Shown: positions 1 to 64,000 of the stretch, one piece after another
Layout: every line of letters starts with the position of its first letter
Position numbering within the stretch: the first letter of the stretch is position 1
Assembly (NCBI GenBank): GCA_937922985.1
Contig: CALAKV010000038.1
Span: 3,857-67,856, forward strand
From: an uncultured bacterium
Lineage (GTDB): Bacteria; Patescibacteriota; Saccharimonadia; Saccharimonadales; Saccharimonadaceae
Length of the DNA: 64,000 nucleotides
Direction of reading: 5' to 3'
Program-made: the position numbers and the translations under genes
Notes under the pieces: model-generated
Database searches by the model: none
The model's input: the letters and a program-made list of their open reading frames with translations, nothing else
Told to the model about the DNA's origin: nothing

Positions 1-1239
1 ATCCGCAAGCTTTCCTGGCAGATTTAAGCCATCCAAAACACCCTTTCGAATCACGTTTTCACGTGCAGCACGTGCAGCTTTTCGTGCTCGAGCTGCAAGG
101 AGAGCTTTATTCACAATTTTTTTAGCTACAGCTGGATTCTCATCAAGATAGTAGCCAAAATACTCATTCATTACTTGCTGAACATACCGGCGAACTTCTG
201 GATTACCAAGCTTGTTTTTAGTTTGCCCTTCAAATTGCGGATCTGGTAATTTTACTAAGATAATCGCAGTTAGGCCCTCACGAATATCATCACCAGAAAG
301 GTTTTCTTCCTTCTCTTTTAAAAGATTATTCTTACGTGCATATTCGTTAATTGTTTGAGTTAAAGAACTTCGAAAACCAACAACATGAGTTCCACCATCT
401 GGGTTAATCACATTGTTTGCAAAAGCACGAACGTTCTCATTATAGCTATCGTTATATTGAATCGCCACTTCAACCATTGAATCTTCAACTTGTTTCTCAA
501 CATAAAATGGTTGCTCAGAAAGAACTTCTTTACCGATATTTAAACTTTTAACGTAGCTCTGAATCCCTCCTTCGAAATAGAAAGCTTGCCGCTCACCAGT
601 TCGTTCATCATCAACTTGAGTATAGATTCCTTTTGTTAGGTATGATTGATGACGGAGATAATTAACAACCCATTTATAATCAAAAGTTACAGTTTCTTTA
701 AAAATTGTTGGGTCTGGGTAAAAAGTTATGCTTGTTCCATCTTCGCGGTCAGTTTTGCCAAGCTTCTTAAGTTCAGTAGTTGGAACACCTCGCTCAAATT
801 CAATCCGATAAAGTTGGCCTTTTTTAACAACTTCAGCAATCATTTTTGTTGAAAGTGCGTTAACCACGCTCGAGCCCACACCATGCAAACCAGATGAAAC
901 TTTATATCCACCGCCGCCGAATTTTCCACCAGCGTGAAGAACAGTTAAAACAGTTTCAAGTGTGCTTTTTCCGGTTTTTGGATGAATATCAACAGGAATA
1001 CCCCGTCCATCATCTGTAATATTAATTCCACCATCATCTAAAATTCGCACAATAACTTTTGTGCCATAGCCAGCAATTGCTTCATCAATAGAGTTATCGG
1101 CAATTTCTTTAATAAGATGATGAACACCATCATAACCGGTTGAGCCGATATACATTCCGGGGCGCTTTCGAACAGGTTCAAGACCCTCAAGAACTTGGAT
1201 CTGAGAACCGTCGTAATTATTTTCTTTTTGTTTAGACAT
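1..1239 (-). CDS. gyrB: DNA gyrase subunit B, N-terminal 413 codons (3' end runs off the left window edge)
   Basis: Not in the ORF track because it is truncated. My reverse-complement translation from ATG 1239..1237 reads MSKQKENNYDGSQIQVLEGLEPVRKRPGMYIGS. In-frame LHAGGKFGGG lies near 910-940 and NLPGKLAD ends at position 1. This is the GHKL ATPase/Toprim signature of GyrB; ParE is not strictly excluded. Confidence 0.85.
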   Translation of the reverse strand, partial: MSKQKENNYDGSQIQVLEGLEPVRKRPGMYIGSTGYDGVHHLIKEIADNSIDEAIAGYGTKVIVRILDDGGINITDDGRGIPVDIHPKTGKSTLETVLTVLHAGGKFGGGGYKVSSGLHGVGSSVVNALSTKMIAEVVKKGQLYRIEFERGVPTTELKKLGKTDREDGTSITFYPDPTIFKETVTFDYKWVVNYLRHQSYLTKGIYTQVDDERTGERQAFYFEGGIQSYVKSLNIGKEVLSEQPFYVEKQVEDSMVEVAIQYNDSYNENVRAFANNVINPDGGTHVVGFRSSLTQTINEYARKNNLLKEKEENLSGDDIREGLTAIILVKLPDPQFEGQTKNKLGNPEVRRYVQQVMNEYFGYYLDENPAVAKKIVNKALLAARARKAARAARENVIRKGVLDGLNLPGKLAD

Positions 1240-1375
1240 TCTTACCTCTCATTCAGAACTTCCATAAATAAAATTTATATCTGTATTATACCTTATTTTA
1301 TAAAAAAATTCAAATAAAGCTTATTTTTTTATAAAAAATATGCTAAAATATAAGCATTAAGTTAAAAGGTGGGAT

Positions 1376-2110
1376 ATGTTTAAAGATATTATTTTAGGTT
1401 ATTACCGCAGCCCCTCTATGGGCAAAAAAATACAAGATTATAAAAGAAAACTAAAAAATGATTTAAAATGGTGGATTTTTAATATTTTTGCTATTGTTTT
1501 TGTATTTTTCACAATATTTTTAACTAATATCTTACCTTCGAAAACTATATCTAATAATATAGTTAAAAAAACATCATTAAACCCTAACCTAACCTATAAT
1601 GTAAAATCAACAGCAAAACACCCACTCCAGCCTAAAGATATCATTTCTTATACACTGACCGTAACTAATAATTCAAAAATAGTTCAGGATTCAAATTTCG
1701 AAGTCAATATATCAGACATACTAGAATATGCAAACCTCCTTGATGGAGGAGATTATAAAATCAAAGATGGCATAATATATTGGAATAATTCTAGTATCGA
1801 GCCCGGAGAATCAAAAAGCAAATTTTTTGCAATAAAAATTAAAGATAGAATCCCAACTTTTAAACAACAGGGAGAATCATTTGATTGCTTTATTAAATTA
1901 AATTTTGGTGAAGTTTCGAAAACCCCAATAAAATGTCCTTTTATAAAAAATATCGATTACTTCTTAAATTCAATCCCAGCTCTTGAGCAATATACAATTT
2001 TACTATTTTTAATTGTTCTATTTTCTATATCAATAATTATGATACTTCGTACAAATTTATTATACAAAGAAATACGATATTTTAGTCAATATTCAGGAGA
2101 AATAAAATAA
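1376..2110 (+). CDS. hypothetical membrane-anchored protein with DUF11/CARDB-like repeat signature
   Basis: 244-aa ORF. RBS aaaaggtggg precedes the ATG. It has an N-terminal TM segment, an LTVTNNSKIV...FEVNISD motif typical of conserved-repeat (DUF11-like) domains, and a C-terminal TM segment. Confidence 0.55.
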   Translation: MFKDIILGYYRSPSMGKKIQDYKRKLKNDLKWWIFNIFAIVFVFFTIFLTNILPSKTISNNIVKKTSLNPNLTYNVKSTAKHPLQPKDIISYTLTVTNNSKIVQDSNFEVNISDILEYANLLDGGDYKIKDGIIYWNNSSIEPGESKSKFFAIKIKDRIPTFKQQGESFDCFIKLNFGEVSKTPIKCPFIKNIDYFLNSIPALEQYTILLFLIVLFSISIIMILRTNLLYKEIRYFSQYSGEIK

Positions 2111-2409
2111 TGAAAAATAATCAAACTTACCAAAAAATATTAGATTTCATACATAAAGATTCAAATTTCAAAAATAATCTTTTTCGAAGTATTTTTCACT
2201 CTAGCGTTTTAGATTTTTTACTAAATTTTGTCGAAAAAATAATACAGCCAAAAGTACTTTTTATATCAATAATATTATCATTAATTATTTATTACTCCGT
2301 TCTTTATATTTCAATACTTAACGGATTCTCTGTAAAATCAGAGATTTTGATATACTTAATATCAGCGTTATTCATCTTTTTATCTCTTATAAGATTAGTC
2401 AAAGAATAA
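2110..2409 (+). CDS. hypothetical small membrane protein
   Basis: 99-aa ORF with an ATGA stop/start overlap to the upstream gene. The C-terminal half is hydrophobic (2 predicted TM segments). Confidence 0.5.
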   Translation: MKNNQTYQKILDFIHKDSNFKNNLFRSIFHSSVLDFLLNFVEKIIQPKVLFISIILSLIIYYSVLYISILNGFSVKSEILIYLISALFIFLSLIRLVKE

Positions 2410-2410
2410 A

Positions 2411-2440
2411 ATCAGGTAGCTTAACAACTACCTGATTTTA
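2411..2440. terminator. bidirectional intrinsic terminator between convergent genes
   Basis: 9-bp stem atcaggtag (2411-2419) / ctacctgat (2428-2436) with loop cttaacaa, flanked by an A-run and a T-run. The TAG stop of the 972-aa gene lies inside the stem. Confidence 0.7.
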
Positions 2441-5346
2441 AATATAACCTCGCCGTCATCAACTTTTTTATAGTTATTCTTAGCGGCATTAGAAGAGTTA
2501 TTGCTTAAGTTATTAGAGGTTCTCGTAGTTCTTATATCCTGAATTACAGAATCATTTTGGATTTGTTGTGGCTTAATATTTTGCTGAACTTGTGTGTTAT
2601 TTAAATTATTTGTGTTATAAGAATTTACACTTTGGTTCTGCATAATATTTTTCTGAAAAGTTATCGCTAAATTACTCTTTGAAGGATCCTCTGGTTGATT
2701 TTGATGAATATTAGAATTTGAATTGCTACTCCTTATTTCATCCCTCTTTTTTAGCCAATCATCCAAAAATGAATCTTTTTTAGAACTATCATTAGAGTTG
2801 TTTATATTAGCGTTATTAGAGCCACCCGAGAACGCCCTTTCCTGCCAACTAACTTGATTCTTTTGTTGTGTCTGAGTTTGGTGTGGCTGCGGCTGAGATG
2901 AATTAGTTCCAGAATTAACGCTCAAACGCCTTCGAATTTCATCTTCAACAATAGCTCGAGGACGACCATATTTTGAAGCTGAATATTTTCGAAGTCCTTC
3001 ACGAATCTCTGGATTAGATTTACCAAAAGGAGGCAAAAGTTTCATTGTGAATGGAGCTGATGGAAATCCATTAACTAAAACAGTCGTAATTGAATTATAA
3101 TTAGGCGTTTTAGTTAAATCTTCAGCGGTAAACGTTGGCGTAAAGGCCTTTTGAAGAACTTCCGCGTCATCAATACCAATCCTACCAACAATCTTGTTAG
3201 GAACGTTACCAAAAATAGCACCCTTAATTGAATCTTTCAACTGAGTTGTAAACTGGTTTGCTAAAATTAAATTCAAGCGATATTTTCGAGCTTCAGACAA
3301 AATAGATTCAAAAGAATCGGTTGCAAAGTTTTGAAACTCATCAACAAATAGACAAAAATCTTTTCGCTGGTCTTCAGGTATATCTGCACGGCCCATTGCC
3401 GCCGCTTGAAACTTCATCACAAAAACCATACCAAGGAGTTTTGCTGCCGCCTCTCCAAGTTTACCTTTCGAAAGATTTACGAGCAAAATCTTATTGTTAT
3501 CCATAACTTCGCGAATACTAAATGCACTCTTTTTTTGGCCAATAATATTATTAACCAAGCCACTTTCGAATGGCGCCCACTTAGAAACAACCCAAGAAAC
3601 AAGTTCTCCTGCATCATTAGATTTTTGCGAAGCTGGCCACTCTTTTGTCCAGAAGTCGATTGCACGCTGATTTCGAAGATACTTAATTTTTTGCTTTGCA
3701 AACTCTGGGTCAACAAGGACTTTTGGAATATCCATAAAAGTTCCTCCATCTGGGTCACTCATTAGTAGCAACGCAGCATTTCGAACAATATTCTCCATTC
3801 GAGGGCCAACAACACCAGTGTTTCCTGGGTCATAGAGAGATTTTAGCATTGAATTAGTCTCAGAAATAACAAAATCCATCTCTTCAGGACTTGAGGCCTC
3901 AAAAATATTAAAACCAAGTGGATTCTCAGTATCGCTCGGATCGAAATAAATCACATCGTCCATTCGGGATTGAGGAATCATCCCGAGCAATTCTTCAACG
4001 GAATCTCCGTGCGGATCAATAAAACAAAAACCTCGTCCATCCATTATATCTTGATAAGCCAAATTCTCAAGGAGCTTAGATTTACCCATACCAGTCTGAC
4101 CAATGATATATGTATGGCGGCGGCGATCATTAACTCCAAGGCGAATTTGCTTTTCAACACCGCGGAATTCATTCACTCCAATCAATAAACCTTCTTTCAT
4201 TGGCTCAGTCGGACCATCAACTTGTCGAATTCTTTGACGCTCAATTTTGCCCGTTGGAATTGAATTTTGATTTGGCAAGTGAAAAATTGTTGAAAGTTCA
4301 ACACTATTCAGGATATTCTGATTCGTACTTTGAGGGAAAAATCGAAAAATATAAGCAGTAACTAATTCGTCAATATTATTAGTCATATTAAATTTGAATC
4401 CATTATATCGCGGTGAATCAAATAAAGAAAATGCTGAAACAATAGATTGTAAAATTGCTTGACTTTTCGAAGCCGTTGAAGAAGAAGTTACCACCCGAGT
4501 TAAAACTTCATAACCTGGATATTTAGTTTTATCTTCAATCGCTTGGATTTCTTCATTTTCTAGAGCCGTAAGCTGTGGATATTCGGTGCTCGAAGTGTTT
4601 AAACCGTATGTAGGCGGCTTCCATAAAGCTTCCATAATATCAAGTATGGCTGTAGTATTATTATTTTTCTTACCTTTACCCTTTCGAATTGACTCAACCT
4701 TTTCATTAGATTTAAGAGTCCAGCTCTCAGGTGCGGGCCTGAACATAATTTGAATTGCCGCTCCGTCTCCACGTTCAACACCGCTCAAAGCATCTAATAA
4801 TGCCCGAGCAGCATCACGACGGCTTTCTTGATATGTCGCAATTGGATAAAAGTAGTCTTTTTTAAGTTCGAATTCACCACCAATCACACCCTGCACCTTT
4901 CCTTGTTGAGAAAAAATATTTTCCATTTCAACTTCTTCAAGACGAGCCGCTGGATATGCAGCAGAGATTGCTTGCTTGATCGTTTCGGTTAAAACCGCAG
5001 GAACGACCGCATAATACCGAACAAGACCATCGCTTGCAACAATTTCGAAAGAAATATGCCTTTGGCCATAAAGTTTAGTTTTAAAGCCTTTCGTTGCGGT
5101 GCTTGCGATAATGTTATACATTGTTTGAGCTTCAGAAAGAACTTCATCTACAACATCCCGCTCATCACGACCGCCAACCTCAAGGTCATCACTTGGCGGC
5201 GGAAGGTGAATTCGAATTGGCACCATTTTTAGGCCACGCTCATAATTTTTCGCCTCTTGAACCATTCTTTTATATTGATCAAAAGCAAAATAAGAAGCCA
5301 CGCAAATAATTACAAAGCTAATAAATAATATTATCCAAATTCCCAT
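2428..5346 (-). CDS. type IV secretion coupling-protein-like P-loop ATPase (VirD4/TraG/TraD family) with N/Q/S-rich C-terminal tail
   Basis: 972 aa with an N-terminal TM segment. Walker A is IGQTGMGKSKLL and Walker B-like is CLFVDEFQNF. Overall it resembles T4SS DNA-binding-domain ATPases. The last ~170 aa are low complexity (N, Q, S). Confidence 0.7.
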   Translation of the reverse strand: MGIWIILFISFVIICVASYFAFDQYKRMVQEAKNYERGLKMVPIRIHLPPPSDDLEVGGRDERDVVDEVLSEAQTMYNIIASTATKGFKTKLYGQRHISFEIVASDGLVRYYAVVPAVLTETIKQAISAAYPAARLEEVEMENIFSQQGKVQGVIGGEFELKKDYFYPIATYQESRRDAARALLDALSGVERGDGAAIQIMFRPAPESWTLKSNEKVESIRKGKGKKNNNTTAILDIMEALWKPPTYGLNTSSTEYPQLTALENEEIQAIEDKTKYPGYEVLTRVVTSSSTASKSQAILQSIVSAFSLFDSPRYNGFKFNMTNNIDELVTAYIFRFFPQSTNQNILNSVELSTIFHLPNQNSIPTGKIERQRIRQVDGPTEPMKEGLLIGVNEFRGVEKQIRLGVNDRRRHTYIIGQTGMGKSKLLENLAYQDIMDGRGFCFIDPHGDSVEELLGMIPQSRMDDVIYFDPSDTENPLGFNIFEASSPEEMDFVISETNSMLKSLYDPGNTGVVGPRMENIVRNAALLLMSDPDGGTFMDIPKVLVDPEFAKQKIKYLRNQRAIDFWTKEWPASQKSNDAGELVSWVVSKWAPFESGLVNNIIGQKKSAFSIREVMDNNKILLVNLSKGKLGEAAAKLLGMVFVMKFQAAAMGRADIPEDQRKDFCLFVDEFQNFATDSFESILSEARKYRLNLILANQFTTQLKDSIKGAIFGNVPNKIVGRIGIDDAEVLQKAFTPTFTAEDLTKTPNYNSITTVLVNGFPSAPFTMKLLPPFGKSNPEIREGLRKYSASKYGRPRAIVEDEIRRRLSVNSGTNSSQPQPHQTQTQQKNQVSWQERAFSGGSNNANINNSNDSSKKDSFLDDWLKKRDEIRSSNSNSNIHQNQPEDPSKSNLAITFQKNIMQNQSVNSYNTNNLNNTQVQQNIKPQQIQNDSVIQDIRTTRTSNNLSNNSSNAAKNNYKKVDDGEVIFKIR

Positions 5347-5756
5347 TACTTCCCACCATTTATAATTCTGTTATATCTTTTTTTCAAATAGTCTATCTGC
5401 ATTTCTTTAAATCGAACCTCGCGAGCATATGGATCGCCCTTAGTTTCAACTATCATTTTCTTCAGATCTTTCACCCATTCATCTTCCATGAGGTCGATAT
5501 CTCTTGCAGTAGCTGGAACTACAGCTACTGGGCTGTTTGCCGATGACTCCTGAACCGCTGGTAAAATAGCTTGTGAAATTGGCTGCTGAGAATCTTGATT
5601 CGAAAAAGCTTGCATAGCTTCGGCTCTAGCCTTATCACTATCAATTCTGTTTATATTTTGCTCAAAGCCAAAATTCCCCACTTCGTGAGGATTATTTATT
5701 GGTTGCGATTGAGCTTCAAAAACTCGTGGAATTTCAAGATTTTTTTGCGGTTCCAT
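5346..5756 (-). CDS. hypothetical protein
   Basis: 136-aa ORF overlapping the downstream ATPase gene start by 1 nt, which suggests an operon. I recognise no domain. Confidence 0.5.
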   Translation of the reverse strand: MEPQKNLEIPRVFEAQSQPINNPHEVGNFGFEQNINRIDSDKARAEAMQAFSNQDSQQPISQAILPAVQESSANSPVAVVPATARDIDLMEDEWVKDLKKMIVETKGDPYAREVRFKEMQIDYLKKRYNRIINGGK

Positions 5757-5779
5757 ATGTAACTATTATATCACAAACG

Positions 5780-6244
5780 TTAGCGTTTTGAAATGTAAAT
5801 TATTGCAATTGTTTCAATAATTATCAATAATAATATTTCGAATATTCCGACTCCGCCGGTGGATTGTTTTGCTATAATTCCAATTGGAGCAAAAGCGAGC
5901 GCAGCAGAATATTTCAAAAAGAAAGCTGGATTTTTTTCTTGCTTTTTTAGTGAAGGCTGGCCCTTTCTAAATAAAGAATATGCAAGCGAAAAAACCCGAT
6001 GTGAAGAATATAAAAATATCGCAATAATACCAAGAAAAACCAAATATATCATTGCAAATAATGCGAGGATCCCAACTGGACCAACTTTATTAGGGGAAGT
6101 TTGAGTGAGCATTAAAAAAATACCAACACCCGATAACCCAGACAGACTAAAAATAATTTTTGAAATCATAATATAATACCATTTTGTTAGATTCAGCCCA
6201 AAGAGTAAGCAAGTATAAATGGTAAGCAAGTAGAATGCCATCAT
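5780..6244 (-). CDS. hypothetical integral membrane protein (start uncertain)
   Basis: The ORF track extends to 6325 using a TTG start. The first ATG pair (VMMAFYLL) is at 6244. There are 4-5 hydrophobic segments. The extension overlaps a structured leader (hairpin GCTTCTC-cttgc-GAGAAGC). Confidence 0.55.
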   Translation of the reverse strand: MMAFYLLTIYTCLLFGLNLTKWYYIMISKIIFSLSGLSGVGIFLMLTQTSPNKVGPVGILALFAMIYLVFLGIIAIFLYSSHRVFSLAYSLFRKGQPSLKKQEKNPAFFLKYSAALAFAPIGIIAKQSTGGVGIFEILLLIIIETIAIIYISKR

Positions 6245-6991: not shown

Positions 6992-7368
6992 TGGTGGAGC
7001 TGCCGAGAACTGCCCTCGGGTCCAAAAGGTAACATTTTAGCCTTCTACAAGTTTAGTTAATTTTGGTTAAAATTTAATACTTAAAAAATCAACAAAAATA
7101 TATTAAAAGTTGCGAAAAAATCTCACTTAAAATTTATCGCGAAAATTTTAAGCCATCAGTGAAAAAATATGACACTTTTCGAAATACGCACTGCCCCATT
7201 TCGAAAAATGGTTGCTAATAAAATTAAGCAGCAACTGGTGCTGAAGCTGGAGCAAAGAATGCTGCAACTTTAGCTGCAAAGTTTTTTGCATTTATTTAAT
7301 ACTTTACGCAGTAAACGACTTGCAAGCCAAACTGTTAAATTCCTCTTGTCTAAAGCTAATTCAGCCCC
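6992..7368 (-). ncRNA. ssrA: tmRNA (SsrA), one-piece, ~377 nt
   Basis: - 5' end is GGGGCTGAATTAGC.
- 3' end is CCGAG-GGCAGTT-CTCGG-CAGCTCC-A-CCA.
- The 7-bp acceptor stem GGGGCTG/CAGCTCC contains the G3:U alanine identity pair.
- The internal tag ORF GCA AAA AAC TTT GCA GCT AAA GTT GCA GCA TTC TTT GCT CCA GCT TCA GCA CCA GTT GCT GCT TAA (7289 down to 7224) encodes AKNFAAKVAAFFAPASAPVAA. Confidence 0.9.
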
Positions 7369-7431: not shown

Positions 7432-8937
7432 ATGGTGAGTAAAGTTATATCAGCCGCACCAATTGGCTATGAAGCAGAGATTATTGAGGTGGAAGGAGAT
7501 TCTTCGAAAGGATTGCCGAGCTTACAAATTGTCGGAATGGGAAATAAAGCAATTGACGAAGCAAAAGAGCGAGTTCGAAGTGCAATTAAAAACTCAATGT
7601 TAGATTTCCCTGCTAAGAAAATTATCATCAATTTAGCACCTGCAGAAATCCCAAAAGACGGAACTTTTTTCGACCTACCTATTGCAATTTCAATTTTAAC
7701 GCTCTCAAACCAGCTAAAGCAGCACGAATTAAAATACCGCGCATTTGTTGGCGAGTTATCACTAAACGGAGATCTTAGACCAATTAAAGGTATTATCAAT
7801 ATTGTCGAAAAACTTCGAAGCCACGGAATTAAAGAAATTTTCTTACCTATTGAAAATTTAGAAACAAGCTCAATAATAGATGGCGTAAAATTAATTGGCG
7901 CAAGAAATCTTAAAGAGATTTTTCTTCATCTTAAAAATGAAAAAATAATAAAAAATGAAGAAAATATTAATACTTTTAAAGATAATAACAATGGCATTAT
8001 TCTCGATGATATTATCAGTCAAGAACAAGCAAAAAGAGCTCTAACTATTGCAATAGCTGGAAGGCACAATATACTACTAACTGGCCCTCCAGGAACAGGA
8101 AAAACAATGCTTGCCCAAGCCGCTTTAAATCTACTGCCACCGCTTTCGAAAAGTGAGTTATTAGAAGTTTTAAAAATTCACGGTTTAGTTGATGAAATTA
8201 GCTCAAATATTTCGAGGCCTTTTCGCACGCCACATCATACCGCAAGTAAAGTCTCCATAATTGGAGGTGGCTCGAAAGCTTTACCTGGCGAGATTAGCTT
8301 AGCGCACAATGGTGTTCTATTTTTAGATGAAATGCCAGAATTCCCTAAATCTATACTCGAAAGCTTACGACAACCGTTAGAAGACAGAAAAATAACCATA
8401 ACTCGTACAAATCGAAAAAGCTCTTATCCTGCAAATTTTATGCTTATTGCAACAATGAATCCCTGCCCCTGTGGTTTTTATGGAGACGCAACAAAGGAGT
8501 GTACTTGTTCATCCACCCAAATTCTTAATTACCAAAGAAAGCTTTCTGGACCGTTAATGGATAGAATTGATATGGTCGTTAATGTTGATAGAATACATAA
8601 CAAAAATCTTCTTTCAAATAATAACAACCAAAATTCCGAACATGCTAATGCTAAAAAACAGATAGAGATGTCGTTAGAATTACAGCATAAGCGTTATAAT
8701 TATAGTAATCTATACAACAGTATGGCTAAAACTAATGATGTAAAAAATAAATTTAATATTTCGAAAGAAGCTGAAGATCTATTAAATTTAGCAGCATCAA
8801 AGCTTGACCTATCCGCTCGAGCATTCCTAAAGATACTTAAAGTTTCACGCACAATTGCAGACCTTGACTCATCAAAAGATATTAAAGTAAATCACATTAG
8901 CGAGGCTTTACAATATCGTCATAAAAATGAAAATTAA
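7432..8937 (+). CDS. comM: YifB/ComM family Mg-chelatase-like AAA+ ATPase (competence protein ComM)
   Basis: 501 aa with a Lon-protease-like N-domain, Walker A GPPGTGKTM, Walker B VLFLDEMPEF, and a Cys cluster (NPCPCGFYGD...CTC) typical of ComM. Confidence 0.9.
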   Translation: MVSKVISAAPIGYEAEIIEVEGDSSKGLPSLQIVGMGNKAIDEAKERVRSAIKNSMLDFPAKKIIINLAPAEIPKDGTFFDLPIAISILTLSNQLKQHELKYRAFVGELSLNGDLRPIKGIINIVEKLRSHGIKEIFLPIENLETSSIIDGVKLIGARNLKEIFLHLKNEKIIKNEENINTFKDNNNGIILDDIISQEQAKRALTIAIAGRHNILLTGPPGTGKTMLAQAALNLLPPLSKSELLEVLKIHGLVDEISSNISRPFRTPHHTASKVSIIGGGSKALPGEISLAHNGVLFLDEMPEFPKSILESLRQPLEDRKITITRTNRKSSYPANFMLIATMNPCPCGFYGDATKECTCSSTQILNYQRKLSGPLMDRIDMVVNVDRIHNKNLLSNNNNQNSEHANAKKQIEMSLELQHKRYNYSNLYNSMAKTNDVKNKFNISKEAEDLLNLAASKLDLSARAFLKILKVSRTIADLDSSKDIKVNHISEALQYRHKNEN

Positions 8938-10072: not shown

Positions 10073-10092
10073 TTCTTCAATAAAAACTAAAA

Positions 10093-10121
10093 ATCACACT
10101 TTCGAAAGAGGTGTGATTTTT
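10093..10121 (+). terminator. intrinsic terminator after rplT
   Basis: Stem atcacac / gtgtgat with loop tttcgaaagag, followed by a T-run. Confidence 0.7.
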
Positions 10122-10135
10122 AGTTTAAAATTAAA

Positions 10136-10675: not shown

Positions 10676-11326
10676 CTACAAACCAAAAATCCGCAAAAAA
10701 GCTGAAAATCCTTCAAGAATAAAACTCATTGAGAAATTGATATAATTAGAAATTACGGTAGAAAACAAAAACATTAAAGCTAAAATAAAAATCGAACCGT
10801 AAGATTCAAGCCTGTCAAAAAAATCTTGAATAAACTCCGGCGCAAATGGTTGAAGAATTTTTGAACCATCTAGCGGAGGAATTGGAATTAAGTTAAAAAT
10901 CGCCAAACTCAAATTAATTAGTGTAAATCTACCAAAAATAGCCGCGATATCACCATGTGATAAGTTTAAAGCATGCATTATCGTAAAGGATATGAGCGCC
11001 ATTATAAAATTAGATAAAGGACCAGCAAGAGCAACGAGAGCCATACCCCATTTGTTCCATTTAAGCTCTCTAGAATCAACTAGGACAGGTTTTGCACCAC
11101 CAATTACAGGAAGATTCGAAAATACGCACAATATCGGTAAAATAATACTAATATAAGGGTCTAAATGCGCAATTGGATTTAAAGTTAATCTTCCCTCCCT
11201 TTTCGCCGTTTCATCACCCAATAAATAGGCGACGAATCCGTGAGAAAATTCATGAACAATCATTGCTACTAATATTGAAATTATAGATATAAATATTATA
11301 AAAACCATATATCTATTATACACCAC
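10676..11326 (-). CDS. site-2 protease family (M50) zinc metalloprotease
   Basis: 216 aa, polytopic. It has the HEFSHG (HExxH) motif in TM1 and a later NLIPIPPLDG motif. Confidence 0.8.
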   Translation of the reverse strand: MVYNRYMVFIIFISIISILVAMIVHEFSHGFVAYLLGDETAKREGRLTLNPIAHLDPYISIILPILCVFSNLPVIGGAKPVLVDSRELKWNKWGMALVALAGPLSNFIMALISFTIMHALNLSHGDIAAIFGRFTLINLSLAIFNLIPIPPLDGSKILQPFAPEFIQDFFDRLESYGSIFILALMFLFSTVISNYINFSMSFILEGFSAFLRIFGL

Positions 11327-11392
11327 TTGACCTTTTTTAAAAAATACGTTATAATGGAACAGATTGTAAATATTAAAGTAAAGAGAGTTAAA

Positions 11393-11581
11393 ATGGCAGT
11401 ATGTGATTTAACAGGAAAAGGAAAGCAACACGGAAACAACGTTAGCTTTTCATTGCGACGCACAAAACGAACTTTTAAGCCAAACATCCAAAAGAAAACT
11501 ATTATTATTGATGGCAAAAAAGTTCGACTAAATTTGAGCACCGCAGCTATCCGAACTTTGAAGAAAAAAGGTATTCTATAA
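11393..11581 (+). CDS. rpmB: 50S ribosomal protein L28
   Basis: MAVCDLTGKGKQHGNNVSFSLRRTKRTFKPNIQKK. The ORF-track start at 11327 is an upstream extension; the ATG at 11393 follows agagag. Confidence 0.9.
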   Translation: MAVCDLTGKGKQHGNNVSFSLRRTKRTFKPNIQKKTIIIDGKKVRLNLSTAAIRTLKKKGIL

Positions 11582-11604
11582 TATTTTTATCTCAAAAGAA
11601 AATT

Positions 11605-11626
11605 CCCACAATTTTGTGGGTTTTTT
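11605..11626 (+). terminator. intrinsic terminator after rpmB
   Basis: cccaca-attt-tgtggg followed by tttttt. Confidence 0.7.
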
Positions 11627-11633
11627 CTTATAT

Positions 11634-11665
11634 AAAAAAGAGCCTATCTTCGAAAGATTGGCTCT
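11634..11665 (-). terminator. intrinsic terminator of the 11676..12314 gene
   Basis: Stem agagcc / ggctct with loop tatcttcgaaagatt. On the minus strand it is followed by TTTTTT. Confidence 0.65.
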
Positions 11666-11675
11666 TTAAAAAATA

Positions 11676-12314
11676 TTATTTTGTCCGTTCAATTTTAACT
11701 ATTGTCATTTTCTCAGGTAAACTTGTAGCCGATTTCACTTTATACTTTGTAGTTTTTTCAACATCAACACCTAGTTCTTTTTCGAAAAGTGCAAAATCAG
11801 ATTGGAGAACTTCGTAGTTAATCCCATCATCAGCATAATGAACAGGAATAATTATTTTTGCATCAGATCTTCTAGCAATATTTGCCGCAGCTGTTGCATC
11901 TAGAGTATATCCGCCACCACCAATCGGTAAAACTAAAATATCCAAAACGCCAAGGTTCTCAAGCTGGTCATCAGATAAATTTGGGTCAATATTTCCCAAA
12001 ATACCAATCCTAACACCGCAAACTTCAACACTATAAATTACAGATTTTTTGTCATCCTTGTCTTCATCAATATGCCGTTTTTCTTGATAGCCATTTATAG
12101 TAAAATCTGACACTTCATAACTTCCAGGATAGGATATTGAAAGCTTAAAATCTTCACTACCAGTCTTAAACCTCTCCTCAGTGGCAAGCTCAACCCCTTC
12201 TTTAATAACTAAATCTTTGTCACCAAAAATAGAATGTTTAGGATCGGTTATTAATGAAATCTTTTTTGTAGAAATTACAATACTGTTTGCGCCCTTATAT
12301 TCAATATCAAACAT
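11676..12314 (-). CDS. MBL-fold metallo-hydrolase (UPF0173-like)
   Basis: 212 aa: ...ILVLPIGGGGYTLDATAAANIARRSDAKIIIPVHYAD, typical of small beta-lactamase-fold hydrolases. Confidence 0.6.
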   Translation of the reverse strand: MFDIEYKGANSIVISTKKISLITDPKHSIFGDKDLVIKEGVELATEERFKTGSEDFKLSISYPGSYEVSDFTINGYQEKRHIDEDKDDKKSVIYSVEVCGVRIGILGNIDPNLSDDQLENLGVLDILVLPIGGGGYTLDATAAANIARRSDAKIIIPVHYADDGINYEVLQSDFALFEKELGVDVEKTTKYKVKSATSLPEKMTIVKIERTK

Positions 12315-27807: not shown

Positions 27808-27825
27808 TCTCTTCCTTTCGAAAAA

Positions 27826-52231: not shown

Positions 52232-52573
52232 ATGACATCTTTAAAAGAAAGATTGGCGGCAGAAAAAGAAGCTGCTTTAACCTATGAAAATATTGCCAAG
52301 CAAGTTGAAGGCATCCTTGTCGAGGCCGCCAAGGATGGTAGATCAAGCGTGCTCATCTACCTTGACAATGAGAATGATTGCAAAACCCAATTTGTGCGTT
52401 ATTTTCTAACCCAGGAAGGAATCAATTTCGAAAAGGCTTATGACACATATACGGCAACTGAATTTCCCTATATCGATACCCACATGGGTACGGGTTGTTA
52501 TGAGGGTGTCGACCCTAATAAACCAGTCGCTGTAGCTAGACGTCGGTTTAAGGGAATTCGTGTATTTTTGTAG
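52232..52573 (+). CDS. hypothetical 113-aa protein, paralog 1 of a tandem pair
   Basis: RBS ggagga. It shares AAK.G.SSV, FL..E.I.F.K.YD and a C-terminal FKGIRVFL with the next ORF. It is visibly GC-richer than the surrounding DNA. Confidence 0.65.
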   Translation: MTSLKERLAAEKEAALTYENIAKQVEGILVEAAKDGRSSVLIYLDNENDCKTQFVRYFLTQEGINFEKAYDTYTATEFPYIDTHMGTGCYEGVDPNKPVAVARRRFKGIRVFL

Positions 52574-52588: not shown

Positions 52589-52930
52589 ATGTCATTTAAA
52601 GACCAGTTAGATGCAACTGCGCAAGAAGGTCGCGATTGCGACACTATCACAGCAAAAGTCAAAGAAACTTTGTTAGCCGCTGCAAAAAGTGGCGAATCTA
52701 GTGTTTTCCTACCACTGACAGATGAGTACGGTTACAAGGTACACGTCATTGAACATTTCCTTGAAAATGAGGATATCAAGTTCAAAAAGATTTATGATTC
52801 ACGTCAGGTTGAGAAGCCACATTACCTAGACCCGCATTATCAAGAAACTGTCGCCAGAAATGGTGGTAAAACCATTTATACCTGGATGGATACGGAGTAT
52901 ACCTTTAAAGGTATCCGCGTGTTTCTTTAG
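52589..52930 (+). CDS. hypothetical 113-aa protein, paralog 2 of a tandem pair
   Basis: RBS aagggga. It has the same length and the same C-terminal FKGIRVFL as paralog 1. Confidence 0.65.
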   Translation: MSFKDQLDATAQEGRDCDTITAKVKETLLAAAKSGESSVFLPLTDEYGYKVHVIEHFLENEDIKFKKIYDSRQVEKPHYLDPHYQETVARNGGKTIYTWMDTEYTFKGIRVFL

Positions 52931-54092: not shown

Positions 54093-54211
54093 AACTACTA
54101 TTTTACTACTTTTTATAAGTTTGGTCAATTTTCGAAAATCTCTATTGACTTTTTCATTTTCAAAAAAATAAAATTCGCCCGATTTGAGCGAATTTTTATA
54201 TTCTCACTTCC

Positions 54212-55416: not shown

Positions 55417-57975
55417 ATGAAAATTACAAAGACTTACGAACCGAACAATTACGAACCTGAAATTTATAATTTATGGGAGCTATCTGGCGCTTTCGAAAGT
55501 AGTGGAGTTGGCCCAAAATATTCAATCGTAATGCCACCACCAAATGCAAATGGAAATCTTCATATCGGCCACGGACTAATGGCTGCGGTTGAAGATATTT
55601 TAGTGCGTTATCATAAAATGAAGGGTTATGACGCAATTTATTTGCCTGGCGCCGACCATGCAGGCTTCGAAACTTGGGTTGTTTATGAGCGCCTTTTAAA
55701 TGCTGAAGGGAAGAGTCGTTTAGATTATTCTCGTGATGAACTTTATAAAAATGTTTGGGATTTCGTAGCAAGTCAACGCGGAAATATGGAACTTCAATTG
55801 CGTGCTTTGGGAGCTGGTGCTGACTGGAAAAATCTCACTTTCACTTTAGATGAAAAAGTAGTAAATCGTGTTTATAAAACTTTCGAAAAAATGTGGAACG
55901 ATGGCTTAATTTACAGAGGTGAGCGCATTGTTAATTATTCAACAAAATATCAAACTTCTTATGCCGATATTGAGGTAGATTACAAAGAAGAGAAGGGGAA
56001 GCTCTGGACGATTGCGTATCCAGTTCTTGATGAATTTGGTGGAGCAAGCGAATATATGCTTGTTTCAACAACTCGCCCTGAAACAATGCTCGGCGACACA
56101 GCTCTTGCGGTTAATCCAGAAGATGAAAGATATGAAAATCTGATTGGCAGAAAAGTTCGAATACCTTTAATAAATCGTGAAATTAAAATTATCGCTGATG
56201 AATATGCCGACCCACAATTTGGAACTGGCGTTGTTAAAATTACACCATTCCACGATCCAAATGATTTTGAAGTTGGTAATCGCCACAACTTGCCAAAAAT
56301 CCAAGTAATTGGATTTGACGGAAAAATGACCAAAAATGCAGGTAAATATGCTGGCTTAGAAGTATTAGAGGCGCGTAAAAAAATTCTTGAGGATCTTCGA
56401 AAAATCAATGCATTGTTTAAAGAAGAAAATATTACTCATGTTGTTGGATATGATTATAAATCTGGAGAACCAATTCAGCCGCTTGTAAAAGAGCAGTGGT
56501 TTATTTCAACTAAGCCTTTAGCTAAAAAAGCCCTTGAAGCTCTTGAGAATAATGAAATTAAATTTACGCCAGAAAATAAGAAAAATGTTTTAGCGGAATA
56601 CTTGAAAAATATTCGCGACTGGAACATTTCACGTCAAATCCCTTGGGGAATTCCAATTCCGGCTTTTCAAAATATTGAAGATCCAACTGATTGGATTTTT
56701 GATGAGCGCGTGCATGAATTACAAATTGAAATTAACGGCAAAACATACAAACGCGATGAAGATACGCTTGATACTTGGTTCTCAAGCGGTCAATGGCCGT
56801 TCATTACAACCGATTTTTTGGAAGGCGGTGAGCTTTCAAAATTCTATCCAAACAGTGTAATGGAAACTGGTCATGATTTGATTTTTCCTTGGATTTCTCG
56901 AATGATTATGCTAGGAATTTACTGCACAGGGCAAATTCCATTCCGCGAGGTTTATTTGCATGGAATGGTTCTTGATGAACATGGCCAAAAAATGAGTAAA
57001 TCAAAGGGGAATGTAATTAACCCAATGGATGTAATTGCCGAGTTTGGTTCCGACGCTTTTCGCCTTGGAATTATCGCTTCACGTTCAGCAGGGCAGAATC
57101 AGGCATTTTCGAAAAATAAAGTTATCGCTGGCCGAAATTTCTGCAATAAATTATGGAATATTTCACGGTTCATTTCTGAAAAAGTTGGCGAAATTAAGAG
57201 CACGAAACAGCCTGAAGCTTTCACGCCAGCAGATCACTGGATTGTGCGAGAACTTGATAAAGCAATTGCTGAAATTGAAAACCATATGCAAAATTACCGT
57301 TTTGCGGAGGCCTCAGAAACGGTTTATCACACGATTTGGAGCACCGTTGCTGATTGGTATATTGAAGCTTCAAAAACGCAAGACAATCCTGAACTTCTTG
57401 CTTGGGTTCTTGAAAATTGTCTTAAAATTACGCATCCTTTTGCACCATTTGTGACTGAAACCATCTGGCAAACTCTGCCTTGGACTGAGGGAATTTTAGC
57501 AAACGAAAAACTAGCCGAATCTCTAAAATTTAACGAATTCGAAGCACTTCAATTTGAACGAATCCAAGATTTAGTTGGTGAAATTCGCCTGATTACAGCT
57601 GAACTACCCGGCAAAAAACGCTATAATTTGGTTTTTGAAAAAGATGAACTAATTGCAAAAAATATTGAAACTATTCGCCACCTTTCACGCGTACCGGAAA
57701 TCGTTCAAACAGATGCGCCACACGGATTTAGCCTTGCCGCTAGCGGTTTGGGTGCTTATCTCGATGTGCCAACCAATATTTTGGCTGAATATAAAACCGA
57801 GCTTGCCGAACGAATCAATAAAATTTCGAACGAAATTAATTTGCTTGAAAAACGCCTTTCGAACGAAAATTATGTTTCAAAAGCACCAGCACATTTAGTT
57901 GAAGAAACTCGTGAAGAATTTTCAAACAAAAAAGCCGAGCTTGAAAAAGTTAAAAAAGCTTTCGAAATTTTATAA
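55417..57975 (+). CDS. valS: valine--tRNA ligase
   Basis: 852 aa with PPPNANGNLHIGH (HIGH), KMSKSKGN (KMSKS), an editing domain, and a C-terminal coiled coil. Confidence 0.95.
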   Translation: MKITKTYEPNNYEPEIYNLWELSGAFESSGVGPKYSIVMPPPNANGNLHIGHGLMAAVEDILVRYHKMKGYDAIYLPGADHAGFETWVVYERLLNAEGKSRLDYSRDELYKNVWDFVASQRGNMELQLRALGAGADWKNLTFTLDEKVVNRVYKTFEKMWNDGLIYRGERIVNYSTKYQTSYADIEVDYKEEKGKLWTIAYPVLDEFGGASEYMLVSTTRPETMLGDTALAVNPEDERYENLIGRKVRIPLINREIKIIADEYADPQFGTGVVKITPFHDPNDFEVGNRHNLPKIQVIGFDGKMTKNAGKYAGLEVLEARKKILEDLRKINALFKEENITHVVGYDYKSGEPIQPLVKEQWFISTKPLAKKALEALENNEIKFTPENKKNVLAEYLKNIRDWNISRQIPWGIPIPAFQNIEDPTDWIFDERVHELQIEINGKTYKRDEDTLDTWFSSGQWPFITTDFLEGGELSKFYPNSVMETGHDLIFPWISRMIMLGIYCTGQIPFREVYLHGMVLDEHGQKMSKSKGNVINPMDVIAEFGSDAFRLGIIASRSAGQNQAFSKNKVIAGRNFCNKLWNISRFISEKVGEIKSTKQPEAFTPADHWIVRELDKAIAEIENHMQNYRFAEASETVYHTIWSTVADWYIEASKTQDNPELLAWVLENCLKITHPFAPFVTETIWQTLPWTEGILANEKLAESLKFNEFEALQFERIQDLVGEIRLITAELPGKKRYNLVFEKDELIAKNIETIRHLSRVPEIVQTDAPHGFSLAASGLGAYLDVPTNILAEYKTELAERINKISNEINLLEKRLSNENYVSKAPAHLVEETREEFSNKKAELEKVKKAFEIL

Positions 57976-59190: not shown

Positions 59191-59313
59191 GCTAAATTCA
59201 CTCAAAAATGTTATAATGAAATAGTAAAATTAACGCTGAATGTGTGGTAGAAATTATTTTCGAAAACCTTTTCGAAGAAGATTCCTGCAACTCATTTGGC
59301 AGAAGGAGAAAAT

Positions 59314-61446: not shown

Positions 61447-61482
61447 AAAAGAGCTTTCGAAAATGAGAGCTCTTTTGGTTTT
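61447..61482 (+). terminator. intrinsic terminator after pnp
   Basis: aaaagagct-ttcgaaaatgag-agctctttt followed by ggtttt. Confidence 0.7.
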
Positions 61483-61583: not shown

Positions 61584-62006
61584 ATGAAAAATTTCAATAA
61601 TCTAAACTCAACTTCTCAGTCAGCAGAAAACAATCCAAAAAATAATTCTCAAGAAAATGATAAATCTATTGAGGTTAGCAACTTTGGTGGTAAGCCAGGT
61701 ATTGAACTATTCCATAATGGCGTAAGATATGTATTTTTAAACAGGAGTAATTTCAACCCACAGGTCACTCCTGGCGATCGTTCCGATACGGTAATAATAG
61801 AGGCTCACAAGGAAGCTTATAAAAATTCACCCGCAAATACAATCTTATCAGGGAAAATGAAAAACTATTCTGAAGATAGGATTGAAAAAGTCAATAGCAG
61901 TTCCTCAGAAACATATCAAAACTCAATTTCTAGAGATTCTGTTTTAGAAGTTGCCAATTTTTCAGCAAAATTATGCGCTTCAGACAAAAACCTTATGGAT
62001 TTATAA
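61584..62006 (+). CDS. hypothetical protein (N-terminal part of a possibly split gene)
   Basis: 140-aa ORF ending in TAA at 62004-62006. The next ORF is in the same frame. Confidence 0.5.
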   Translation: MKNFNNLNSTSQSAENNPKNNSQENDKSIEVSNFGGKPGIELFHNGVRYVFLNRSNFNPQVTPGDRSDTVIIEAHKEAYKNSPANTILSGKMKNYSEDRIEKVNSSSSETYQNSISRDSVLEVANFSAKLCASDKNLMDL

Positions 62007-62054
62007 GAAATTAAAGATATTAAGGATCTGAAAGAGCTATCACCTCGACAAGCC

Positions 62055-62819
62055 ATGCTTTTGAGTACGAATATAGTTATGAAATTAAAGAATTATGATA
62101 ACTCCGAAGTATATGACAGTCATAGAAAAGCCGACAGAATGTCAACTTTAGAAATAATGAAGCACCTATCAAAAGAGGGGGATTCGCCACTTGGTGTTTG
62201 TAGGAATTATGCCGATATGACTAAAATCATTTTTACGGCACTCAAAAAAGTTCAAAATCCAGAAACAACTCGCCTTGCCAACACCTATTGTCGAGAAATT
62301 GTTGGTGAATCCCCGTGGGATGCCGTAAACCCCTTCAAGTCTAAATCTGCTGTGGGTCATAAATATAACCAATTCATAACCTTTACTCATGATGGAACCG
62401 CCATCACTAATGTAGACCCAACTTGGGGTCAATTAGATGGCAATTTATCAAAATACGCATCGCTATCAATGAATATCGTTGAGCGAGAACCGCTTGTAAG
62501 TGATTTTATTAAGGATATCCGAGACAAAGGATATTTCAAGTCGCCAGAAGACAGAAAAAATACTGAAAACTTACGAGAATATTATATGGATATCGCTAAA
62601 AAAATCGATAAAGTCATATCAAGACTATCTCAAAAAGGACATAATCGAGAAAATAATACATGTTTTGAAAAAATACAAAATATGCAATATTATTCGCTAT
62701 TAAAATCAGCCGAACTCTCATCTTTCTTGCATGCGCACGGCCTAATTAGTGACCAAGAAATGGATAAATATCAAAAAGTTAAATCAGATATTGAGAATGA
62801 GATTAATAATACTCAATAA
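62055..62819 (+). CDS. transglutaminase-like cysteine-protease-fold protein (possible C-terminal part of a split gene)
   Basis: The Cys-His-Asp pattern GVCRNYADMTKIIF ... VGHKYNQFITFTHDGTAITNVDPTWG resembles the transglutaminase core (G.C..FA ... HAW ... DPT). Confidence 0.5.
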   Translation: MLLSTNIVMKLKNYDNSEVYDSHRKADRMSTLEIMKHLSKEGDSPLGVCRNYADMTKIIFTALKKVQNPETTRLANTYCREIVGESPWDAVNPFKSKSAVGHKYNQFITFTHDGTAITNVDPTWGQLDGNLSKYASLSMNIVEREPLVSDFIKDIRDKGYFKSPEDRKNTENLREYYMDIAKKIDKVISRLSQKGHNRENNTCFEKIQNMQYYSLLKSAELSSFLHAHGLISDQEMDKYQKVKSDIENEINNTQ

Positions 62820-62968: not shown

Positions 62969-63049
62969 AATGTTTCTATTTTATCAAATTTTGCCAAAAA
63001 ACACAAGAGCATTGACAAAAATTACTTTTTTTGCTATAATATAGCCATT

Positions 63050-63517
63050 ATGAAGAATTTTAAACAAGTTTCGAAAATCTCAATCAGCGGTTTTGTAGCT
63101 TCTACATTTTCTGCAACCTTCTTGGCATTAAATACTTTTGCAACCGGTGGAATATTTAGTGGTGGCGTTCAAGGTGGAGCCGATAAAGGTCGTGGTGAAG
63201 GTGTTCCAACTCAACTTTTTGGCGAAGGTAACACTGGAATTTTTACCCAGATGGTAAATATGATGCTTTTTGCAGTTGGAATTTTAAGCGTTATAATGTT
63301 AATTTATGGCGGTTTACGCTATATACTATCAAACGGTGATTCGAAAAAGGTTGATGCTGCAAAAAATACAATTCTTTATGCGATCATTGGCTTAATTATC
63401 GCAATGCTTTCTTATGCGATCATCAACTTCATTATTAGCTTATTCTTAGGAGGAGCCGGAACTGGTTTCGGCAGTGGTTCAAACGGAGCGAACGGTATTC
63501 CTCCAACGAATGTTTAA
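63050..63517 (+). CDS. TrbC/VirB2-like type IV secretion pilin family membrane protein
   Basis: 155 aa with a signal/TM segment, then MLFAVGILSVIMLIYGGLRYILSNGDSKKVDAAKNTILYAIIGLIIAMLSYAIINFI. This is the two-helix pattern with a conserved G..Y....G[DN] loop, followed by a Gly-rich tail. Confidence 0.55.
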   Translation: MKNFKQVSKISISGFVASTFSATFLALNTFATGGIFSGGVQGGADKGRGEGVPTQLFGEGNTGIFTQMVNMMLFAVGILSVIMLIYGGLRYILSNGDSKKVDAAKNTILYAIIGLIIAMLSYAIINFIISLFLGGAGTGFGSGSNGANGIPPTNV

Positions 63518-63528
63518 TTTTCGAAACT

Positions 63529-63560
63529 AAAAAGTCGCCTTCTAAGCGACTTTTTCTTTT
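63529..63560. terminator. bidirectional intrinsic terminator
   Basis: aaaagtcgc-cttctaa-gcgactttt between convergent genes. Confidence 0.7.
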
Positions 63561-63569
63561 TGTCTATTC

Positions 63570-64000
63570 TTATAAATATTGGCGTAAACTGATGATAGGG
63601 TCTTTTCGAGCTGCACGGAAGGCAGGGTAAAGGCCAAAAATTACACCAACCAACACCGAAATTCCACAAACCAAAACAGCAATTTGCCAAGAAATAACTG
63701 GACTAAACGGTAGAAATACACTCACTCCAAAAGAAAATGCATAGCCAATGAGATAACCAAAAAATCCGCCGCTTAATGAAATTATCATCGATTCTGTTAA
63801 AAATTGAAACAAAATATGCCGATTATTCGCACCAAGTGCCTTTCGAATACCAATTTCTCTCGTTCGCTCACTTACATTCACGAGCATAATATTCATAATG
63901 CCAATTCCACCAACAACTAGCGAAATGCTTGCCACAATTGCCAAAATAAATGTTGAAAGCTCAATAAATTTATCTGATGGATGCGAAATATTTTTACCAG
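63570..64000 (-). CDS. ABC transporter permease, FtsX/MacB-like, C-terminal part (5' end beyond the window)
   Basis: ...GGIGIMNIMLVNVSERTREIGIRKALGANNRHILFQFLTESMIISLSGG... is the FtsX-domain signature. The reading frame stays open to position 64000. Confidence 0.8.
   Translation of the reverse strand, partial: GKNISHPSDKFIELSTFILAIVASISLVVGGIGIMNIMLVNVSERTREIGIRKALGANNRHILFQFLTESMIISLSGGFFGYLIGYAFSFGVSVFLPFSPVISWQIAVLVCGISVLVGVIFGLYPAFRAARKDPIISLRQYL

Follow-up and report, generated by a model that had tools for sequence, protein, structure and literature searches.

TTCGAA, a hyper-abundant palindrome of patchy distribution in one group of Saccharibacteria: a candidate HIP1-like or uptake-sequence-like motif

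Why should a bacterium carry more than three copies per kilobase of a six-base palindrome, when short palindromes are normally avoided? A preliminary description of a 64,000-nt stretch of contig CALAKV010000038.1 (assembly GCA_937922985.1; Saccharimonadaceae), here called the window, raised this question for TTCGAA, and all window counts given below cover these 64 kb. Its remark on avoidance is a fair one; the known exception, HIP1 (highly iterated palindrome 1) of cyanobacteria, was not mentioned there. The exact count is 214 sites (3.34 per kb), which ranks first among all 4096 hexamers and equals the number found by hand, including the sub-counts of 21 (1..6000) and 7 (27781..30120). With the base composition of the window (A 0.320, T 0.319, C 0.197, G 0.163) a mononucleotide model predicts 21.5 sites, which makes the enrichment 9.9-fold; the first estimates by eye were 20-25 sites and about 10-fold. 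The excess is a real, strongly non-random DNA-level motif and not a codon or peptide effect. We tentatively read it as a self tag akin to HIP1 and to uptake sequences, which would profit from a fixation bias acting per segment through natural transformation or recombination of DNA from kin, possibly with methylation; we give this reading a probability of about 0.4.

An artefact of base composition, codon usage, amino-acid content or dispersed-repeat remnants is suggested by the AT-rich genome with its abundant T-runs and A-runs, and it is refuted by the null models. In 100 dinucleotide-preserving shuffles the motif appears 43.5±6.2 times, with a maximum of 60. For coding sequence, synonymous codons were shuffled inside each gene of 58 chosen open reading frames, which keeps the proteins and the per-gene codon usage; 56.0±6.3 sites are expected and 186 are observed (z = 20.6). 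Neither kind of shuffle ever reaches a third of the observed count, and the codon null is conservative because the motif itself raises the usage of TCG and CGA (sites account for 87 of the 208 TCG and 59 of the 241 CGA codons). Every reading frame is enriched about 3-4-fold, with 40, 59 and 87 sites against 14.9, 18.0 and 22.5 after codon shuffling. The density is 3.38 per kb in coding and 3.11 per kb in non-coding DNA, the latter amounting to 29 sites in 9.3 kb against 3.2 (mononucleotide) or 5.7 (order-1) expected. Of the checks proposed at the outset, the hexamer count puts TTCGAA first, and the order-4 Markov expectation is 185, a value that would favor an artefact but is circular and uninformative because TTCGA and TCGAA are abundant only through the motif. 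Relatives of like G+C content are not enriched (locus L004, 37% G+C, 1.1-fold; locus L083, 37%, 1.7-fold). The points on which the preliminary description would have yielded can thus be stated as results: the count does not fall below 100, the codon null does not reproduce it, and the sites are not confined to one frame. Its examples within single features also stand, namely the three frames in the TrwB/TraG/HerA-like ATPase gene (on the minus strand), the tmRNA gene and the hairpin loops; the intergenic examples exist as well, at coordinates slightly different from those first given (Table 1).

The full motif is a soft octamer, TTTCGAAA or (T)TTCGAA(A), an extension absent from the preliminary description. 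It occurs 85 times against a mononucleotide expectation of 2.2, and 70 times in coding sequence against 14.4±3.4 under codon shuffling. Position -1 is T in 62% of sites and position +1 is A in 63%, whereas T precedes other TTC words in only 39% of cases. The six variants of TTTCGAAA that differ at a single outer base total 96, so deviations concentrate at the outer octamer positions. Past -2 and +2 the flanks have background composition, which argues against a dispersed repeat of the REP (repetitive extragenic palindrome) or MITE (miniature inverted-repeat transposable element) kind, and the top 7- to 10-mers of the window are all extensions of the TTCGAA core with no longer conserved context. 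Out of 369 TCGA words 214 lie in the motif, while other NNCGNN hexamers are unremarkable. A strand-asymmetric orientation signal of the Chi or KOPS (FtsK-orienting polar sequence) type is excluded, as the motif is its own reverse complement. Among the one-off variants, CTCGAA (18), ATCGAA (25), GTCGAA (7), TTCGAG (17) and TTCGAC (10) are 9-30 times rarer than TTCGAA, in keeping with the order of magnitude first claimed for these five; the claim does not extend to the CpG-transition neighbors TTTGAA (84) and TTCAAA (91), which trail TTCGAA by a factor of only about 2.4. Most inner one-off hexamers occur close to expectation. Sites lie throughout the window, with 3-13 per 2 kb (mean 6.7, variance 5.0), and motif-free stretches are few, one being 61584..62819 and another a large pilin-like gene (Table 1).

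The sites are maintained. Maintenance was assessed against two genomes, L002 and L003, that share about 95% identity with the window. The motif is intact in 63 of 69 sites in L002 (91%) and in 32 of 36 in L003; among all hexamers the conserved share is 75% and 71%, respectively, and among other NNCGNN words it is 68% and 60%. Third-codon positions differ in 4.2% of cases within sites and 11.9% outside them in L002 (p = 0.008), and in 1.8% and 13.9% in L003 (p = 0.005); that is, conservation at synonymous positions is 3-7 times higher in sites than elsewhere. Parsimony over the three genomes counts six gained and six lost sites, a balance that points to a steady state. Maintenance is ongoing in the window's lineage. 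In a TTCGAA-poor lineage, to which we return below, sites are conserved like any hexamer (15 of 19, vs 0.78).

The force is also strong. Between 43 and 54% of the synonymous opportunities are realised: 40 of 79 Phe-Glu pairs, 59 of 110 [FLIV]-Arg-[A-initial codon] and 87 of 202 x-Ser-[Lys/Asn] strings. The Phe-Glu figure is reached even though TTC accounts for only 21% of Phe codons. Site codons differ in amino acid from motif-poor relatives more often than other codons do (40.2% vs 24.2%, p = 3e-10), typically by Ser for Ala and by Lys/Arg swaps, whereas with motif-rich relatives there is no difference (15.8% vs 16.9%). This contrast argues that the force fixed non-synonymous changes; it is strong enough to fix amino-acid replacements. 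A DNA-level force, and no favored codon pair, is accordingly what the preliminary description rightly proposed, since all frames and non-coding DNA are enriched, synonymous positions in sites are conserved and extra amino-acid replacements occur. Site positions are shared between rich lineages at 30-52%, compared with 21-37% for any hexamer, a figure that does not tell shared descent from parallel gain, half of the opportunities being used.

The spacing of sites bears on how such a force would act. Neighboring sites lie less than 30, 60 and 100 bp apart in 7, 20 and 39 cases, against 19.6, 38 and 60 for random placement. When the sites are redistributed only among 390 synonymous opportunities the expectations are 17.1, 34 and 53 (P = 0.0002, 0.0004 and 0.002), and an opportunity is realised in 34% of cases within 60 bp of another site and in 52% farther away (p = 0.002). 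There is local saturation, in that the presence of one site makes a second within about 60-100 bp less likely. In the window's lineage the sites are thus spread more evenly than by chance, with the same trend in L088 and L175 and the opposite one in L082. Interference between neighbors argues against an independent per-site mutation or repair bias, and it fits a benefit or drive counted per DNA segment.

This weighs on the idea, also raised at first as a repair hypothesis, of a neutral directional bias without function, for example a very-short-patch-like process that follows cytosine methylation and corrects T:G mismatches to TTCGAA. Turnover between the roughly 95% identical genomes does run mainly along this path, with 14 of 18 one-step differences being TTCGAA<->TTTGAA/TTCAAA, and a bias of this sort would likewise give sites the appearance of conservation. 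A predominance of CpG transitions is nevertheless to be expected in any case, given neighbor pools of 175 vs 56 and AT-biased mutation. Furthermore, neither TTTGAA nor TTCAAA shows depletion (the ratio of observed to expected is 2.1-2.3 in rich and 1.5 in poor lineages), no cytosine methyltransferase or Vsr gene is present in the window, and a per-site bias predicts no interference between neighbors. We consider this explanation quite unlikely, and its very-short-patch form is disfavored.

The distribution of the motif is narrow. A scan anchored on valyl-tRNA synthetase (ValRS), with one genome per GTDB species, covered 80 species loci. Only three are enriched (10.7-11.7-fold), all from the window's own lineage, metagenome-assembled genomes named 'Candidatus Saccharimonas sp.' with 98% ValRS identity; the other 77 Saccharibacteria species have TTCGAA at 0 to 3.6-fold and no octamer excess. 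The window, L002, L003 and L075 are rich at 10-12-fold. Among further relatives reached by ValRS, the enrichment is 1.7-fold in L083 (86% identity), 0.6-fold in L176 (83%), 6.3-fold in L082 (77%), 0.3-fold in L177 (75%) and 0.7-fold in L084 (73%); among those reached by the methyltransferase locus discussed below, it is 6.1-fold in L091, 7.4-8.1-fold in L088-90 and 11.6-fold in L175, which is about 75% identical to the window at the nucleotide level. Rich and poor loci are interleaved, so the trait is confined to one genus-level Saccharimonas-like group and patchy inside it. A candidate outside this group, L113 (56% G+C), which carries the methyltransferase-nuclease pair, has an apparent 6.7-fold excess, but the order-2 expectation is 17.6 vs 26 observed, and the excess is a null-model artefact of its composition rich in A/T runs. 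The excess of A-runs and T-runs in L113 is extreme (GAAAAA 57 vs 4.3 expected). None of the papers covered by a literature search connects TTCGAA to Saccharibacteria.

Recombination between rich and poor lineages can be followed in one place. A tract of about 4.2 kb in the TTCGAA-poor lineage (L086 9783..14012; also L173, L174 and L087) holds the methyltransferase, the nuclease and the threonyl-tRNA synthetase (ThrRS) and is 84-97% identical to rich lineages, while its flanks are 70-75% identical. It contains 12 of the 19 sites of L086 and all five of its octamers. From this identity profile we read the tract as a recombination import from a TTCGAA-rich into a TTCGAA-poor lineage. The tract carries rich-lineage sites, and motif density therefore marks the lineage of origin of the DNA, which is how this import was exposed. 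ThrRS (window 13871..15688) is at least 95% identical in the best 120 matches listed, whereas ValRS (55417..57975) drops to 86-73% within the same genus; being far more uniform, the ThrRS segment evidently passed across the genus through homologous exchange. These alignments indicate that the lineages exchange DNA by homologous recombination. The tract borders were considered as a motif recombination hotspot, and this was rejected: the right border lies near 14072, the left border has no site, and a single tract proves nothing.

The imported genes include a candidate for a reader of the motif. The window encodes an EcoRI-family N6-adenine DNA methyltransferase and its DUF262-HNH nuclease partner (Table 1), both present and intact. 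The two genes are neighbors in 73 of 87 loci, which include many gut and rumen bacteria, and their place is constant within the genus, with a glycosyltransferase on one side and ThrRS on the other. Two regions of the methyltransferase, at about residues 206-248 and 312-350, are hypervariable; they occur in shuffled combinations and are presumably target-recognition regions: (a,alpha) in the window, (a,beta) in L091, (b,gamma) in L088, (a,delta) in L175 and (c,delta) in the poor lineage, with dozens of further types in distant homologues. The nuclease is without a variable region and is 92-94% identical within the genus and 57-59% in other phyla. By its sequence, the pair looks like a restriction-modification (R-M) system with a generic nuclease and with specificity in the methyltransferase alone. 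In L086 the nuclease gene (11019..12107) has two in-frame stop codons (110, 229); it is intact in L173 and L087, which are 93-99% identical.

Could TTCGAA then be the target of a resident methyltransferase, with methylation-dependent mismatch repair or an epigenetic function making or keeping the sites, as in Elhai's model for HIPs? The enzyme would be the one encoded in the window or another elsewhere, and this explanation overlaps with the self tag that we favor if methylation is the transformation tag. Every alternate HIP of cyanobacteria is accompanied by a methyltransferase for its inner hexamer, with deviations concentrated at the outer positions (PMC4390886), and the same outer softness is seen here (85 + 96). 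TTCGAA methylated on its last adenine is a known bacterial methylation motif (PMC5930826). An intact pair is found in every rich locus sampled at the pair's place next to ThrRS, whereas the poor lineage has the pair only in the imported tract, with the first variable region shortened and, in one member, the interrupted nuclease; a patchy distribution would moreover suit a mobile gene. The co-occurrence of pair and trait is, however, sampling-biased, because the loci were found through the methyltransferase. The rich lineages show four variable-region combinations, hence different specificities if the variable regions set specificity. The trait does not track the presence or type of the pair, as the poor lineage also carries it and has kept it over 2-7% nucleotide divergence while being unenriched outside the tract. 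Nor are the 80 loci with distant homologues (L093-L172) enriched, with 143 sites observed vs 203 expected, and there is no second DNA methyltransferase in the 64 kb. Sequence comparison thus does not support the EcoRI-family methyltransferase as the motif's reader, and the first suggestion that TTCGAA is the target of this NPPF enzyme is likewise unsupported, though conceivable; the wider methyltransferase-linked explanation is possible but doubtful.

Avoidance of TTCGAA in homologue-bearing genomes was tried as a clue to specificity and set aside. It is 0.30-fold under order-1 and order-2 nulls, with TTCGAA ranking there as the palindrome of most significant depletion, and 0.55-fold (rank 32 of 64) under the mononucleotide null, and we do not rely on it because it is null-dependent, comes from unrelated variable-region types and has no taxon-matched control; it is tied to no variable-region type. 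The family name predicts avoidance of GAATTC, of which there is none in the window (22 vs 21.5 expected); an order-2 depletion of GAATTC is only apparent, because the GAA and TTC words of the motif inflate the expectation. In a metagenome scan based on the methyltransferase alignment no homologue exceeded 59% identity and close relatives were absent, and searches of solved structures and NCBIfam gave no specificity information for this enzyme. The window's most depleted palindromic hexamer is CTTAAG (4 observed vs about 20 expected), and GATC, CATG, ACGT, GTAC and CTAG each stand at 0.2-0.5 of expectation; these depleted palindromes may be targets of restriction systems. CTTAAG is also the most depleted palindrome in L108, L109, L116, L119, L120, L129 and others (9 vs 63, order-2 null), gut contigs whose nuclease is <50% identical to that of the window and several of which are near-duplicates of one organism.

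A methylated kin-recognition barcode would join these elements: an R-M-type methyltransferase, the EcoRI-family enzyme with its DUF262-HNH partner or another, would mark TTCGAA, and the competence or recombination machinery would prefer marked DNA. We hold this to be improbable. If true, a restriction-type target would have been driven up about 10-fold and not avoided, and the trait would toggle among sister lineages as the module moves by transformation.

We return to the self tag. An uptake-type signal, one of the hypotheses offered at first, is viable and is our leading reading. On this reading a lineage-specific factor would recognise (T)TTCGAA(A) as double-stranded DNA, and the motif would be pushed up to about 3 sites per kb and kept there. 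Incoming kin DNA with the motif, possibly methylated, would be preferentially taken up or recombined; the sites would spread by molecular drive, and one per segment of roughly 100 bp would suffice. The reader would most likely be a dimeric or methyltransferase-type protein whose gene lies outside the window and comes and goes between lineages. Natural transformation, dependent on comEC, has been demonstrated in other Saccharibacteria (PMC10633639). The window encodes a type IV pilus cluster and a ComM-like ATPase, both named in the preliminary description and both identified here (Table 1). The cluster holds three pilin-like genes, a prepilin peptidase and PilC-, PilT- and PilB-like genes; three downstream genes without a family match may be PilM/N/O, and the cluster is possibly the uptake machinery. 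The three pilin-like genes (24535..26871) are fast-evolving, being about 73% identical between rich lineages where their flanks are 82-86% identical, and they cannot be aligned with the poor lineage at the DNA level.

Several points weigh against the self tag. Motif-poor sister lineages retain the same pilus genes, which means that the pilus machinery by itself does not determine the trait. The only recombination tract seen entered a poor lineage, and its borders are not clearly at sites. In the L088 lineage the excess conservation of sites is weaker and not significant. A palindrome of 6-8 bp has low discriminating power per site compared with the known uptake sequences, which are asymmetric and of 9-12 bp. 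Finally, conservation and local saturation would fit a structural DNA-binding role unrelated to transformation as well. Such a role, in which an abundant nucleoid-associated or segregation protein binds the palindrome and ordinary natural selection keeps it, was proposed for HIP1 by Xu, Lawrence and Durand (PMC5861425). Besides this precedent, the conserved sites, the even density along the window and a short-range repulsion compatible with a protein footprint speak for a chromosome-structuring site. We judge it unlikely: no candidate protein is known, selection per site must work at thousands of sites in an epibiont with a small genome, and the disappearance of the trait from nested sister lineages, with no visible effect, sits poorly with an essential role.

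Table 1. Positions in the window of individual TTCGAA sites and of the genes and elements discussed in the text.
Feature	Position	Strand	Remarks
Site in frame xTT-CGA-Axx	2931..2936	-	Gene 2428..5346 (TrwB/TraG/HerA-like ATPase); frame counted from gene end 5346
Site in frame xxT-TCG-AAx	3467..3472	-	Gene 2428..5346 (TrwB/TraG/HerA-like ATPase)
Site in frame TTC-GAA (Phe-Glu)	3565..3570	-	Gene 2428..5346 (TrwB/TraG/HerA-like ATPase)
Two sites (7178, 7200) in tmRNA gene 6992..7368	7178..7205	-	Rfam RF00023, 95.8 bits
ComM-like Mg-chelatase-family ATPase	7432..8937	+	Competence-associated helicase family
Site at hairpin apex	10101..10106	.	Hairpin 10084..10126, 19-bp stem, terminator-like, -22.1 kcal/mol, z = -8.2
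Site at hairpin apex	11649..11654	.	Hairpin 11637..11667, -15.0 kcal/mol, z = -5.3
DUF262 (GmrSD_N)-HNH nuclease	15952..17040	-	Methyltransferase partner; PADLOC REase_II, full length, E = 9e-136
EcoRI-family N6-adenine DNA methyltransferase	17045..18124	-	NPPF at residue 160; PF13651 E = 4e-141; PADLOC MTase_II, full length
Other intergenic sites	6440, 15699, 18603		
TTCGAA in tRNA-Asp T-loop	21214..21219	+	GGTTCGAATCC
Type IV pilus gene cluster	24535..34708	-	A24_N_bact, T2SSF, T2SSE twice; pilin-like N-terminal leader sequences
Motif-free large pilin-like gene	25804..26871	-	No TTCGAA in 1068 bp, Poisson P = 0.03
12-bp perfect palindrome	38645..38656	.	ATTTTCGAAAAT; repeated at 50582..50593 and 54128..54139
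Two intergenic sites 12 bp apart (59259, 59271)	59259..59276	.	Upstream of polynucleotide phosphorylase gene; among only 7 spacings <30 bp
Site at 5' loop edge of hairpin	61456..61461	.	Downstream of polynucleotide phosphorylase gene, -17.8 kcal/mol, z = -4.6
TTCGAA in tRNA-Ser T-loop	62893		

The two T-loop sites are ordinary tRNA sequence and lie outside the phenomenon. Elsewhere in the window, two genes without a Pfam match contain internal direct repeats, of about 120 bp (50066..50190 / 50329..50478) in 49466..51679 (737 aa) and of about 50 bp (47425..47474 / 47596..47645) in 46704..47711 (335 aa). The adjacent genes 52232..52573 and 52589..52930 encode paralogous 113-aa proteins without an assigned function.

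The role and origin of hyper-abundant short palindromes have been open since the description of HIP1, reportedly in 1995, and comparative genomics of HIP1 offers little contrast because it is nearly universal in cyanobacteria. Here the contrast exists: a 6-12-fold excess in several lineages is absent in interleaved sisters about 75-86% identical in housekeeping proteins. Many long public contigs, rich and poor, are available, and a whole-genome presence/absence scan could therefore name the responsible gene. To our knowledge, Saccharibacteria are the one clade of Patescibacteria that is cultivable, naturally transformable and now genetically tractable, which makes uptake and methylation tests realistic. 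If the motif promotes transformation, it could improve Saccharibacteria genetics as HIP1 did for Synechococcus, and its density is in any case of use as a marker of the lineage from which recombined DNA came.

Among known systems, the closest precedent is HIP1 (GCGATCGC) together with the alternate HIPs of cyanobacteria. Both they and the present motif are 8-bp palindromes with a hard 6-bp core and soft outer positions, occur roughly once per kb or more both within coding DNA, in all frames, and outside it, are conserved past the synonymous background and are lost in some lineages of the clade, and the hosts are naturally transformable. [quoted passage not shown] The differences make the present motif HIP-like but not HIP1. 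It is TTTCGAAA, with AT-rich flanks and a CG center, in Patescibacteria, and not GCGATCGC in cyanobacteria. The excess over a codon-aware null is 3-5-fold here against the far larger HIP1 values; the distribution is patchy within one genus and not phylum-wide; and while HIPs have a cognate methyltransferase, the single methyltransferase of the window has variable regions that differ between rich lineages.

The DNA uptake sequences (DUS) of Neisseriaceae and the uptake signal sequences (USS) of Pasteurellaceae are alike in being hyper-abundant in a competence context with type IV pili, in lying in genes, between genes and at terminator hairpins, in being explicable by molecular drive and in a spacing more even than random; Karlin et al. 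reportedly found the latter for Haemophilus USS in 1996. They differ in being asymmetric, of 9-12 bp and family-wide with dialects, where the present motif is a palindrome of 6-8 bp, and the receptor of DUS is known (the ComP pilin in Neisseria), where the present motif is a candidate signal. TTCGAA is also the recognition site of AsuII, BstBI and NspV. It resembles a type II R-M site in being a 6-bp palindrome in a window that encodes a type II-like methyltransferase-nuclease pair; unlike such sites, which are normally avoided (in Microcystis TTCGAA is found once per 209 kb; PMC2779907), it is enriched about 10-fold. The CCWGG sites of Dcm/Vsr in E. coli offer another likeness, a methyltransferase target over-represented through biased mismatch correction. 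Very-short-patch repair in E. coli depletes the T-containing product, whereas no such depletion of a deamination product is seen here, the effect is far larger, and the window has no dcm or vsr. Set beside these systems, the motif is a new AT-flanked, lineage-patchy variant of the iterated-palindrome and uptake-signal phenomenon, in a phylum without a known earlier example.

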